64,000 nucleotides of DNA from a virus (lineage: Duplodnaviria > Caudoviricetes): positions 6,649-70,648 of IMG/VR virus record IMGVR_UViG_3300014005_000001, one strand, 5' to 3'. Positions 6,257-64,000 of this stretch are shown here, piece by piece. The position numbers were made by a program, and so were the translations under genes. Each line of letters starts with the position of its first letter. The first letter of the stretch is position 1. The notes under the pieces are model-generated. The model saw only the letters and a list, made by a program, of their open reading frames with translations. It was not told the DNA's origin and made no database searches.

Positions 6257-6817
6257 TTAACCTGTAGTCTTTTGAAGGCTTGCAGGATCGAATTTTGTTA
6301 ACCAAGTCGTTTCGACTGTTCCCGTTAAATTGATACCTTCGTAATAAAGTTGTCCGTAAGCATCAGGTAAAGCTGTAATTTCTAGTTCAAATTCCGCTAA
6401 TTCTTCAGCACCGTTTTCCACACTCTTTACATATCCAGTAGCAGCAGTGCAGTTAGGGAATGCGATTAAACGTTTGTTACCTTCAAAAATATCAGCTTCT
6501 TCAGCCACGAACGAGAAATCTTTCCCGATGCTATCAATACCGTATGCGTAAACATCGGCTACTAAACCATCATTTGTAATACCGAAAATGTCACGTAATA
6601 CTTTTAATTGCATATGGCCACTAATTGTAACGGTTAATTGAGAAGGTTTGGATTTCTTCTTTTGAATAACACCACCACATAATTTCGAAATTGATTTAAT
6701 TTCTGTTTCTGCATCTAGCTTTCCAACACAACCGAATGGCTCGGAAACCGTTGCCCCTTTAAATAAAACACTTGCATTTTTAATCTCAACCGCATCAAAC
6801 ACATCAATTGTAGGCAT
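6257..6817 (-). CDS. Major tail protein
   Basis: 186 aa, beta-rich, acidic; synteny. Confidence 0.8.
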   Translation of the reverse strand: MPTIDVFDAVEIKNASVLFKGATVSEPFGCVGKLDAETEIKSISKLCGGVIQKKKSKPSQLTVTISGHMQLKVLRDIFGITNDGLVADVYAYGIDSIGKDFSFVAEEADIFEGNKRLIAFPNCTAATGYVKSVENGAEELAEFELEITALPDAYGQLYYEGINLTGTVETTWLTKFDPASLQKTTG

Positions 6818-15772: not shown

Positions 15773-16315
15773 TTAGATTTTAAACCTAGTCATTGCTTTA
15801 TCCATTGCATCTTGGTTTACCCCTATATAACGTAATGTGACCTTCTCTGACGAGTGATTGAATATCTCCATAAGTAATGCTATGTTTTTCGTTTGCATGT
15901 ACATATGATACCCGTACGTCTTTCTCAACGTATGTGTTCCTATTTCATCTAATCCAAACTCTGCCGCTGCTCCACTTAATATCTTATATGCCATACTACG
16001 ACCGATAGGACGATTCTTCCCTTGTCTACTTTGTAATAAATACTCATTATCTTCTCTTTCTTCAATAAACCATTTCAGTTCTCTTTTCAGTGCTGCAGTA
16101 ATTTGTATTCGTTTCTGTTTCCCGGTTTTCTTTTCTCTCATAGATATATGACTACCTTTAACATCTCCTACCTTCAATTTCAAAATGTCCGAGATTCTCA
16201 GGCCTGTATTGATTCCCATAATGAAGAGAATGTAATTACGTAAGCTCTTTTCCTTAAAATACTCTTTTAGCTGCTGTATTTCTTCTGGATCACGTATTGG
16301 CTGAACAAAATTCAT
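15773..16315 (-). CDS. Minimal tyrosine recombinase (catalytic domain only)
   Basis: GLRISD, HTLRKT, FNHSS and TLRY catalytic motifs; 180 aa. Confidence 0.9.
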   Translation of the reverse strand: MNFVQPIRDPEEIQQLKEYFKEKSLRNYILFIMGINTGLRISDILKLKVGDVKGSHISMREKKTGKQKRIQITAALKRELKWFIEEREDNEYLLQSRQGKNRPIGRSMAYKILSGAAAEFGLDEIGTHTLRKTYGYHMYMQTKNIALLMEIFNHSSEKVTLRYIGVNQDAMDKAMTRFKI

Positions 16316-17372: not shown

Positions 17373-17936
17373 ATGATTGAAACAGTTGTATTAGCAGGTT
17401 TTATATTTTTAATTATCTTTGTGCTAAAGTTGCCACGGTACATGCGTTTAAAGCGCGAAAATGAAGAAGCACTCATACGTAGAAAAAAAGAAAGAGAAAG
17501 AGCATATAAACTACATATGGAGGAACTTCGTCAGTCCGGTATTGATGAAATCGATCAAATGAATGGTCTACAATTTGAAGAGTACCTAAGCTCTTTATAC
17601 CAATCTCTTGGATACAATACAGAAGTTACAAAGGGATCTGGTGATTTTGGAGCCGATTTGATTTTAGAAAACAATGATGAAAAAATTATTGTCCAAGCAA
17701 AACGCTACAGTAGCAAAGTTAGTATCCAAGCGGTTCAAGAAATAGTTGCGGCAAAAGGTTTTTATAACGCTGAGCACGCTTGGGTTGTTACAAACAACTA
17801 TTTCACAACACCTGCCCGTAAATTAGCGGACGCTAATGATGTATTACTTATAGATCGGGACTTATTGATTAAATTAAGTGTGCAAGTAAATCAAGCGAAA
17901 GTATCAACTCGTGTTGAGAGATATAACTCCAATTGA
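17373..17936 (+). CDS. Mrr-like restriction endonuclease domain with N-terminal membrane helix
   Basis: GLQFEEYL, SGDFGADL, VQAKRY and VVTNNYFT motifs; hydrophobic N-terminus. Confidence 0.85.
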   Translation: MIETVVLAGFIFLIIFVLKLPRYMRLKRENEEALIRRKKERERAYKLHMEELRQSGIDEIDQMNGLQFEEYLSSLYQSLGYNTEVTKGSGDFGADLILENNDEKIIVQAKRYSSKVSIQAVQEIVAAKGFYNAEHAWVVTNNYFTTPARKLADANDVLLIDRDLLIKLSVQVNQAKVSTRVERYNSN

Positions 17937-17964: not shown

Positions 17965-18067
17965 ACAAAATGAAATTTTTATAATAAACCTTCAATCTTT
18001 GCTATCGCTTCAAATATCGGATAAATCTGTTGAGGCACAACCGCGTTTCCCAAGAATCTTAATCTAT
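17965..18067. repeat. Exact 103-bp direct repeat, copy 1 (copy 2 at 63898-64000)
   Basis: Base-by-base identical; offset 45933. Confidence 0.95.
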
Positions 18068-18734
18068 CTTCGTCCAATCTTGTGGCAGTCCCATCATCCA
18101 TTCCACAAATTGCGGGTTGATTTTCTTCCCAATATGTTCTGGAAAGTGTTCCCCGATTGATCCCGGTAGTGTTTTCCCGTGGCTGCCGTTTGCTTCTGAA
18201 GGGCACAACTCGCGGATCGGCTTGTAATTTTGACTTGTCGTTGGAGTGGCCAATAATAAATGTCCTGTATCTTTGATGTGGCGCCCCGACACTGACAGCC
18301 GGTAATACGAACGTCCTTGTCGAGTAGTTTTCTTCTTCCAAGTCGGAGAGCACGGTGTCCAAGCCCATTGTGACGTGTCCAGCAACATTTTCTCCAACAA
18401 ACCAAGTGGGTCCGAGTTCTCTAATGAGTCGGAAGACTTCTGGCCATAACCATCTTTCGTCTTCTGCACCTTTTCTCTTTCCTGCCATGCTTTCTCCCTG
18501 ACAGGGATATCCTGCTGAAATAACTCCAATTGAATCAACGTCAACACCTCCATCTATTAATGATTGTTTCGTAAGTTTATATAAATCCGGGAAAATAGGA
18601 ATGTTAGGATAGTTCTTTCTAAGTACTTTCTGATTGAACTCTTCTATCTCGCAAAAGGCTGCTGTTTCAATCCCAACCCAATCCGCTGCCATGCTTATTC
18701 CTGCAATTCCCGAACATAGATCTAACATTTTCAT
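17979..18734 (-). CDS. DNA cytosine-5 methyltransferase, alpha chain (no motif IX)
   Basis: Motifs I (LDLCSGIAG), IV (GYPCQ), VI (GENV), VIII (QRYR) and X (LGNAV). Confidence 0.92.
   Translation of the reverse strand: MKMLDLCSGIAGISMAADWVGIETAAFCEIEEFNQKVLRKNYPNIPIFPDLYKLTKQSLIDGGVDVDSIGVISAGYPCQGESMAGKRKGAEDERWLWPEVFRLIRELGPTWFVGENVAGHVTMGLDTVLSDLEEENYSTRTFVLPAVSVGAPHQRYRTFIIGHSNDKSKLQADPRVVPFRSKRQPRENTTGINRGTLSRTYWEENQPAICGMDDGTATRLDEDRLRFLGNAVVPQQIYPIFEAIAKIEGLL
18059..18538 (-). CDS. Nested alternative-frame gene: putative methyltransferase beta chain carrying motif IX
   Basis: GGAGGTG RBS 6 nt before TTG (MIQLELF...); C-terminus KKINPQFVEWMMGLPQDWT resembles motif IX; part of track ORF 18059-18553. 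Confidence 0.7.
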   Translation of the reverse strand: MIQLELFQQDIPVREKAWQEREKVQKTKDGYGQKSSDSLENSDPLGLLEKMLLDTSQWAWTPCSPTWKKKTTRQGRSYYRLSVSGRHIKDTGHLLLATPTTSQNYKPIRELCPSEANGSHGKTLPGSIGEHFPEHIGKKINPQFVEWMMGLPQDWTKID

Positions 18735-19111: not shown

Positions 19112-19510
19112 TTATTTAGTATTCGTACCTTCTACGCCTCGTTTTTCCCTACCCACAGTTCGTTTGCTAAGCCACAGTAATGCCTCTTCTAGCTTAGTGA
19201 TTGCCATTGAGTTCTCTCTACAACGGAAACCTGTTTGGTTGAAATGTTCAAGGCGACAAATAACCATAGCGATAAGATCCTCATTCGTTACACCGTTAAT
19301 ACCAGCTTCTTGGATTGGCCCTTCTTGAAAATTAATCTCTCCAACCTTTAAAGGTAATGGATTATCGTTCTCGACGTTATTAGGATTGTACATAACGATT
19401 CCAGTGTTAGCATAAACTTCAAAGTGATGTGGGGCATTGTTTGTAAACTCCTCTTCATGAAATACCTCTGTATACTTACTCGTTAACAAATCATGTTCTA
19501 GTCTTTTCAT
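19112..19510 (-). CDS. tad1: Tad1-family anti-Thoeris signal sponge
   Basis: INFQEGP...GVTNEDLIAMVICRL...FRCRENSMAITKLEEALLWL..R...R..RGVEGTN matches the Tad1 signature as recalled. Confidence 0.82.
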   Translation of the reverse strand: MKRLEHDLLTSKYTEVFHEEEFTNNAPHHFEVYANTGIVMYNPNNVENDNPLPLKVGEINFQEGPIQEAGINGVTNEDLIAMVICRLEHFNQTGFRCRENSMAITKLEEALLWLSKRTVGREKRGVEGTNTK

Positions 19511-63897: not shown

Positions 63898-64000
63898 ACA
63901 AAATGAAATTTTTATAATAAACCTTCAATCTTTGCTATCGCTTCAAATATCGGATAAATCTGTTGAGGCACAACCGCGTTTCCCAAGAATCTTAATCTAT
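63898..64000 (-). repeat. Second copy of the methyltransferase 3' end (gene continues past the right edge)
   Basis: Identical to 17965-18067; encodes RLRFLGNAVVPQQIYPIFEAIAKIEGLL-stop. Confidence 0.95.

Follow-up and report, generated by a model that had tools for sequence, protein, structure and literature searches.

Two methyltransferases that are made as two polypeptides can be compared with the gene analyzed here. M.EcoHK31I, from E. coli HK31 (YGGCCR; Lee, Kam and Shaw 1995, as described in PMC2836561 and PMC3404938), has a beta chain whose coding sequence lies within that of alpha in a different frame, and loss of the beta start codons abolishes activity (PMC2836561; PMC3404938). Both of its chains are needed, the N-terminal stretch of its beta chain is dispensable in part, and its predicted TRD was placed in alpha (PMC2836561, PMC3404938); the enzyme has also been studied for engineered targeted methyltransferases (PMC2836561). 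M.AquI is a two-polypeptide C5 methyltransferase that is split within the variable region (PMC3404938). Its subunits represent a linear division of the enzyme, with motifs I to VIII in one and motifs IX and X in the other, and are not nested.

We analyzed a 64,000-nt window (positions 6,649 to 70,648) of the 70.6-kb IMG/VR virus record IMGVR_UViG_3300014005_000001, which holds one full copy of a methyltransferase gene. The features of this gene, in window coordinates, are as follows.

17979..18734, minus strand: alpha coding sequence, 251 aa, C5 methyltransferase large (catalytic) domain, with an ATG start at 18734.
18501-18503, minus strand: codon of Cys78, the catalytic cysteine, in alpha motif IV (PCQ).
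18384-18392, minus strand: alpha motif VI (ENV).
Inside alpha, minus strand: motif VIII (HQRYR); motif I is also present.
18033-18050, minus strand: alpha motif X (GNAVVP).
18059..18538, minus strand: beta coding sequence, 159 aa plus stop, TTG start, in the +1 frame of alpha; proposed recognition (small) domain.
18059-18553, minus strand: a longer reading of beta, 164 aa from an ATG.
18545..18551, minus strand: GGAGGTG Shine-Dalgarno (SD) sequence of beta, 6 nt before the TTG, with its GGAGG core 8 nt before it.
18213..18538, minus strand: part 1 of the overlap, alpha motifs IV to VIII (codons 66 to 174) over the N-terminal ~108 residues of beta.
18059..18212, minus strand: part 2 of the overlap, beta residues ~109 to 159 (PTP..SQ segment, variable segment, and motif IX) over alpha linker codons 175 to 225.
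18071..18118, minus strand: motif IX in the beta frame, NPQFVEWMMGLPQDWT.
63898..64000, minus strand: truncated second copy of the gene's 3' terminus, comprising the last 28 alpha codons and downstream sequence, interrupted where the record ends.

The beta open reading frame (ORF) lies wholly within the alpha gene, on the same strand and at an offset of +1, and its translation begins with MIQLELF and ends with ...INPQFVEWMMGLPQDWTKID. The first-pass annotation had described a 251-aa chain that has motifs I to VIII and X and lacks motif IX and a TRD, and within its gene a nested 159-codon ORF that starts at a TTG (18538) with GGAGGTG 6 nt ahead of it, and this anatomy is directly visible in the sequence. 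It had also placed at least the gene's 3' terminus in both of two units, and the two segments are indeed the same: positions 63898 to 64000 are identical to positions 17965 to 18067 at 103 of 103 nucleotides (blastn), and alpha residues 224 to 251 are recovered there at 100% identity (tblastn). Because this repeat lies at the end of the record, the record holds either two related units or a terminal redundancy, with the remainder of the second copy past the contig end.

As in M.EcoHK31I, motifs I to VIII and X are in alpha, and beta lies inside the alpha gene, on the same strand and in another frame, and contains motif IX. Unlike in M.EcoHK31I, in a comparison made from published descriptions only, alpha has no TRD candidate (the corresponding region is a 56-residue linker) and the variable segment is in beta. 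The two systems also differ in their setting, which is a Bacillus cereus-group phage or plasmid-prophage in the case of the window gene and an E. coli restriction-modification system in the case of M.EcoHK31I; no cognate type II endonuclease adjoins the window methyltransferase. The layout is that of M.EcoHK31I in every testable defining feature except the TRD in alpha. The window gene differs from the AquI type in that alpha retains motif X, which lies downstream of the beta stop, and in that beta is nested.

We found that the PF00145 profile matches alpha over residues 1 to 184 only, corresponding to profile positions 1 to 180 of 324 (E = 2e-36), and since the match stops at this point, alpha lacks motif IX and a TRD. 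Alpha also matches phrog_363 (E = 5e-78), a family labeled DNA methyltransferase. In an alignment of 28 diverse alpha homologues, residues G9, C78, Q79, E115, N116, V117, H153, R155, and R157 are invariant, as are the motif X residues G229, N230, and P234. The AF2 model of alpha, calculated from a 28-sequence alignment, is confident for residues 1 to 169 and 230 to 251, with pLDDT values of 87 to 93 for residues 230 to 250 and below 50 for residues 170 to 229. When compared to M.HhaI with Foldseek (E = 2e-15), the model aligns over approximately 175 columns at 1.6 to 2.3 Å, or roughly half of M.HhaI, and the matched part is, as modeled, the large domain. Of the features expected of a C5 methyltransferase, alpha thus has the large-domain motifs and motif X, and the TRD and motif IX are not found in the same chain. 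Between motifs VIII and X, neither the AF2 model nor the dN/dS values given below identified a structured or selected segment in alpha; this linker varies in length from ~0 to 190 residues across the family and is unalignable between clades.

The beta chain matches phrog_1008 (E = 4.7e-38), also labeled DNA methyltransferase, as do its relatives P0010 and P0067, and it has no match to a Pfam or NCBIfam family. Its AF2 model is confident only for residues ~95 to 159, with pLDDT values below 60 for most of residues 1 to 93. We found no match for beta in the PDB by Foldseek at an E value of ≤0.001 and none by VIA-align wide at a Z score of ≥2, and a HMMER profile search of solved-structure sequences returned only chance-level matches. 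Because these structure and sequence searches were empty, motif IX was identified in beta from a single-frame relative and not from structure. This relative, L086, is a 344-aa protein for which the PF00145 match spans profile positions 2 to 322 of 324, and its residues 7 to 186 are 38% identical to alpha residues 1 to 190. Residues 290 to 308 of L086 (RRLNPQFVEWMMGLPDGWV) are identical to beta residues 138 to 156 at 13 of 19 positions (68%; E = 2e-8), and residues 319 to 332 (LKMLGNGVVPQQ) match alpha residues 225 to 238, which include motif X. The proposal that the C terminus of beta resembles motif IX is therefore directly supported by its match to the in-frame motif IX of a protein with a full-length PF00145 domain. 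The N-terminal region of beta has no detectable counterpart in L086. In the single-chain relatives L086, L087, and L010 (Streptomyces), all motifs are in one frame and, as in the window gene, motif IX has the form NPQFVEWMMGLP and motif X the form GN.VVPQQ. Since L086 has the same order in frame, the order of motifs I to VIII, IX, and X in the window is canonical, with the middle piece in the +1 frame.

This agreement in segment order (alpha I to VIII, beta TRD and motif IX, alpha X) also means that a doubly shifted product of the window gene would resemble a normal enzyme. Such a product would arise by recoding, if a +1 shift after motif VIII and a -1 shift after motif IX gave a single-chain methyltransferase and the separate ORFs were by-products. 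We regard recoding as very unlikely, given that beta has its own start and SD sequence and given the openness of both frames outside their own segments, described below. To our knowledge, two programmed shifts in one gene are without precedent in the C5 methyltransferase class.

The most variable stretch of the beta family, in both sequence and length, lies between the PTP..S motif and motif IX, a position at which the target-recognition region would be expected. Members of the beta family range from 150 to 470 aa, and the number of (W/L)PTPxAxD-type modules between the N-terminal region and motif IX goes from one to at least five; examples of this variation are L002 (1477-2181) and proteins P0067, P0072, and P0103. 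The recognition part would thus seem to have grown by the addition of modules.

We also considered whether beta could be a real and selected protein that is independent of alpha, with a DNA-binding or regulatory role, or whether alpha could be active alone with beta modulating it. The absence of a structural match for beta and of an L086 counterpart for its N-terminal part would be in keeping with such a role. However, beta holds exactly the motif that alpha lacks and that is in frame in the single-chain relatives, it was never found apart from alpha in the approximately 120 related loci described below, the alpha model is without any recognition domain, and M.EcoHK31I is strictly dependent on its beta chain, and so we judge either possibility to be unlikely.

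The window sequence allows beta to be read from either the ATG at 18553 or the TTG at 18538. In the close relatives L016 and L042, the reading from the ATG meets a stop at codon 4, leaving the TTG as the start that is common to L016, L042, and the window. Both of these relatives keep a GGAGG sequence 8 nt before the TTG equivalent to 18538. SD-like motifs were also found ahead of beta-frame starts in BN12, Harrison, L058, L061, L064, L077, and L079, and the position of the beta start varies between subfamilies.

We then compared the openness of the two frames with that expected by chance. For the window gene, a stop-free run of at least 164 codons in the +1 frame was obtained in 0.08% of 5,000 synonymous shuffles of alpha (P = 0.0008). 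Across the family, we used 24 lineages with less than 70% alpha identity, and in 24 of 24 the alpha frame is stop-free across the beta-specific stretch, which is 49 to 279 codons long. When beta was shuffled synonymously, the probability of an open alpha frame ranged from 0 to 0.4 in 23 of these lineages and was 1.0 in one, with a summed log10 value of -46.9. Because the alpha frame is open in every lineage and its linker is unalignable, alpha is kept readable in order to reach motif X, with the amino acids of the linker being immaterial. Upstream of the junction, in part 1, the +1 frame is open for ~80 to 180 codons, with P values of 0 to 0.24 per lineage that are biased by the definition of the region from the real ORF. 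Recoding requires neither frame to be open outside its own segment, so an alpha frame that stays open over 49 to 279 drifting codons in all 24 lineages, and a beta frame that is open for ~80 to 180 codons upstream of the junction, both argue against a double programmed frameshift.

A third-frame ORF at 18094-18405 on the minus strand (103 aa) was rejected as a coding sequence, with a dN/dS value above 1 and no equivalent in phage yong1. The stop-free run in this frame is 108 codons (P = 0.005 in synonymous shuffles), and the ORF most likely results from stop avoidance in the other two frames.

To measure selection in each frame, we used 29 close relatives of the window gene with 92 to 100% nucleotide identity and no indels, and we calculated OLGenie-style dNN/dNS ratios with bootstraps over codons only; the clades tested share ancestry. 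The alpha-frame dN/dS was 0.15 in the alpha-only N terminus and 0.23 in part 1 (here taken as alpha codons 62 to 174), increased to 1.42 in part 2, where the beta-frame dN/dS was 0.10, and was 0.013 downstream of the beta stop, while the sham +2 frame had values of 1.2 to 1.8. In part 2, the dNN/dNS for beta was 0.086 (confidence interval [CI], 0.03 to 0.18) and the dNN/dSN for alpha was 0.69, with a CI that spans 1. The corresponding ratios in the Lachnospiraceae, yong1-like, and Acetobacteraceae clades were 0.20, 0.13, and 0.19, respectively, for beta and 0.78, 0.55, and 0.60, respectively, for alpha. These values show that, past motif VIII, purifying selection shifts out of the alpha frame and into that of beta, and there is no doubt that the distal third of beta is under selection as a protein sequence.

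For the proximal part of beta, the dNN/dNS in part 1 was 0.27 (CI, 0.12 to 0.53) and significant in the window clade, was no different from that of control regions in Lachnospiraceae, and fell short of significance in the yong1 clade. The alpha synonymous rate was 0.140 in part 1 versus 0.348 in the alpha-only parts (P < 0.0005). Since the dNN/dNS values are inconsistent across clades, the case for the N terminus of beta is a weak one that draws on openness of the frame and on the lowered synonymous rate of alpha. The first ~90 residues of beta are only mildly constrained, and their apparent conservation may in large part be a shadow of alpha motifs IV to VIII. Weak constraint on this region fits the partly dispensable N terminus of the M.EcoHK31I beta chain.

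Among loci L001 to L089, 73 carry alpha and beta as closed ORFs that differ in frame, with beta identity decreasing to ~25% and beta at +1 in every two-frame locus; the hosts include Bacillus, Croceifilum, Virgibacillus, a Synechococcus metagenome-assembled genome (MAG), and a deltaproteobacterial MAG, along with numerous viral contigs from the environment. A second scan, which reached many bacterial phyla (Lachnospiraceae, Cytobacillus, Planctomycetes, Bacteroidetes, Acetobacteraceae, Parcubacteria, Bdellovibrionales, and other groups), added 50 loci, 47 of which have the same layout. Bacillus phage yong1 and the Paenibacillus phages Harrison and BN12 have it as well, as do cyanobacterial and marine viral contigs. 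The first-pass annotation had named conservation of both frames in homologues as a check on its proposal, and we find that nearly all of the ~120 related loci have the two-frame layout. Its description of a phage-borne Gram-positive example with ~480 doubly coding nucleotides holds as far as the overlap is concerned, but the window gene is not an isolated case and is instead one member of a very large family. The window gene is a further member of this unannotated family.

In the other three loci of the second scan (L091, L098, and L112), a single indel displaces both frames at once, which is what decayed copies should show. These loci, and chimeric called proteins such as P0001, are the observations that would favor decay or artefact as the origin of the layout, that is, a single-chain gene disrupted by two frameshifts that compensate each other, or by errors in sequencing, with a nested ORF that is open by chance. 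However, the offset and boundaries are identical in independent assemblies and isolates across phyla, purifying selection acts strongly on the beta frame as well as at either end of alpha, and the chance of such openness is very low. Decay or artefact is thus extremely improbable as an explanation, and the pseudogene or double-frameshift reading is ruled out by conservation and selection.

An exhaustive phmmer search with beta against 1.84 billion representatives yielded 2,604 proteins at an E value of ≤1e-3, most of which are 150 to 470 aa long and begin at the beta N terminus. A word-index protein search yielded 21 called beta-like proteins, none of which is an NCBI or UniRef entry and which are termed "hypothetical protein" where named. 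Several called proteins depart from the usual arrangement. Proteins P0009, P0019, and P0042 start with motif I (LFSGIGG...) and continue with beta-type sequence after ~35 residues, which could reflect either copies with an indel or a different layout. Protein P0001 is a three-frame chimera, and in P0064 motif IX runs straight into motif X in one frame; both are decayed or rearranged copies.

The closest public relatives of the window gene are on 52- to 162-kb plasmids of the Bacillus cereus group, in which beta is 91 to 95% identical to that in the window and for which RefSeq annotates only a "DNA cytosine methyltransferase" (alpha) under the match. In BN12 (gp62 and gp63) and in many Fernvirus records (Paenibacillus larvae phages), both overlapping ORFs are annotated as DNA-cytosine methyltransferase. 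A paper on 48 P. larvae phages tabulates both gene products and does not discuss the overlap. A full-text literature search found no paper on this family or on its wide conservation beyond EcoHK31I. In annotation, only one of the two proteins is almost always recorded.

Other genes near the methyltransferase were also inspected. A gene at 17373-17936 on the plus strand, convergent with the methyltransferase gene, encodes a 187-aa protein with a hydrophobic N terminus and a restriction-endonuclease domain of the Mrr_cat type (PF04471, E = 1e-30). This pairing is probably not functional, because the Mrr_cat gene is not a neighbor of the methyltransferase in B. cereus plasmid pFORC087.3. On the minus strand, 19112-19510 encodes a 132-aa protein with a sub-threshold match to the Acb2/Tad1 hairpin domain (22.3 bits versus a cutoff of 27; E = 1.5e-4), and 15773-16315 encodes a 180-aa tyrosine recombinase that consists of the catalytic domain only (PF00589, E = 1e-23).

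Based on these analyses, we consider it quite probable that the gene yields two chains, each with its own initiation, that join into one enzyme in the manner of M.EcoHK31I. The first-pass annotation had proposed a two-chain enzyme of this type, and the layout, the open frames, the switch in selection between frames, and the motif IX of L086 all argue in its favor. We infer that beta is translated, that the two chains assemble and need each other, and that specificity comes from beta. In the model we propose, one mRNA with two initiation sites would give rise to two proteins. Ribosomes that initiate at the ATG at 18734 would make alpha, with the full catalytic domain, namely, motifs I to VIII and the motif X helix, and with the small domain replaced by an unstructured linker of 56 residues whose sequence would be free to drift. 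Initiation at the internal TTG at 18538, behind the GGAGGTG sequence and in the +1 frame, would make beta, the distal third of which would comprise the variable recognition segment and motif IX, i.e., the small domain that is missing from alpha. The nested chain thus appears, from the position of these segments, to carry the whole recognition part and not motif IX alone. The two chains would then assemble into one enzyme in which beta supplies target recognition, and the assembled enzyme would methylate phage or plasmid-prophage DNA against host restriction. The earlier suggestion that beta may set specificity is consistent with a segment between motifs VIII and X of alpha that appears unstructured and unselected and with the placement of the variable segment in beta.

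If the chains work as proposed, this gene family provides a case of a conserved same-strand overlap in bacterial viruses (480 nt in the window) that has a clear functional logic: because the small domain interrupts the large one, the enzyme can be divided along domain lines only by a gene nested in the other. It would also mean that thousands of "short Dcm-like" methyltransferases of phages are incompletely annotated and that their specificity is predicted from the wrong chain. A naturally separable recognition subunit would be useful for engineered, targeted methyltransferases, and the family would be a good test bed for methods of overlapping-gene detection. We further propose, tentatively, that the nested two-frame design, with the whole small domain separately translated, could be the standard architecture in a very large clade of phage and prophage C5 methyltransferases. 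If so, specificity in this clade would evolve via beta, through its variable segment and PTP-type modules, which number from one to at least five, while alpha would only have to stay open, and the TRD assigned to the alpha chain of EcoHK31I would be the same unselected linker. Such an architecture would represent ~150 to 500 nt of obligatory dual coding that has been maintained over long evolutionary times.
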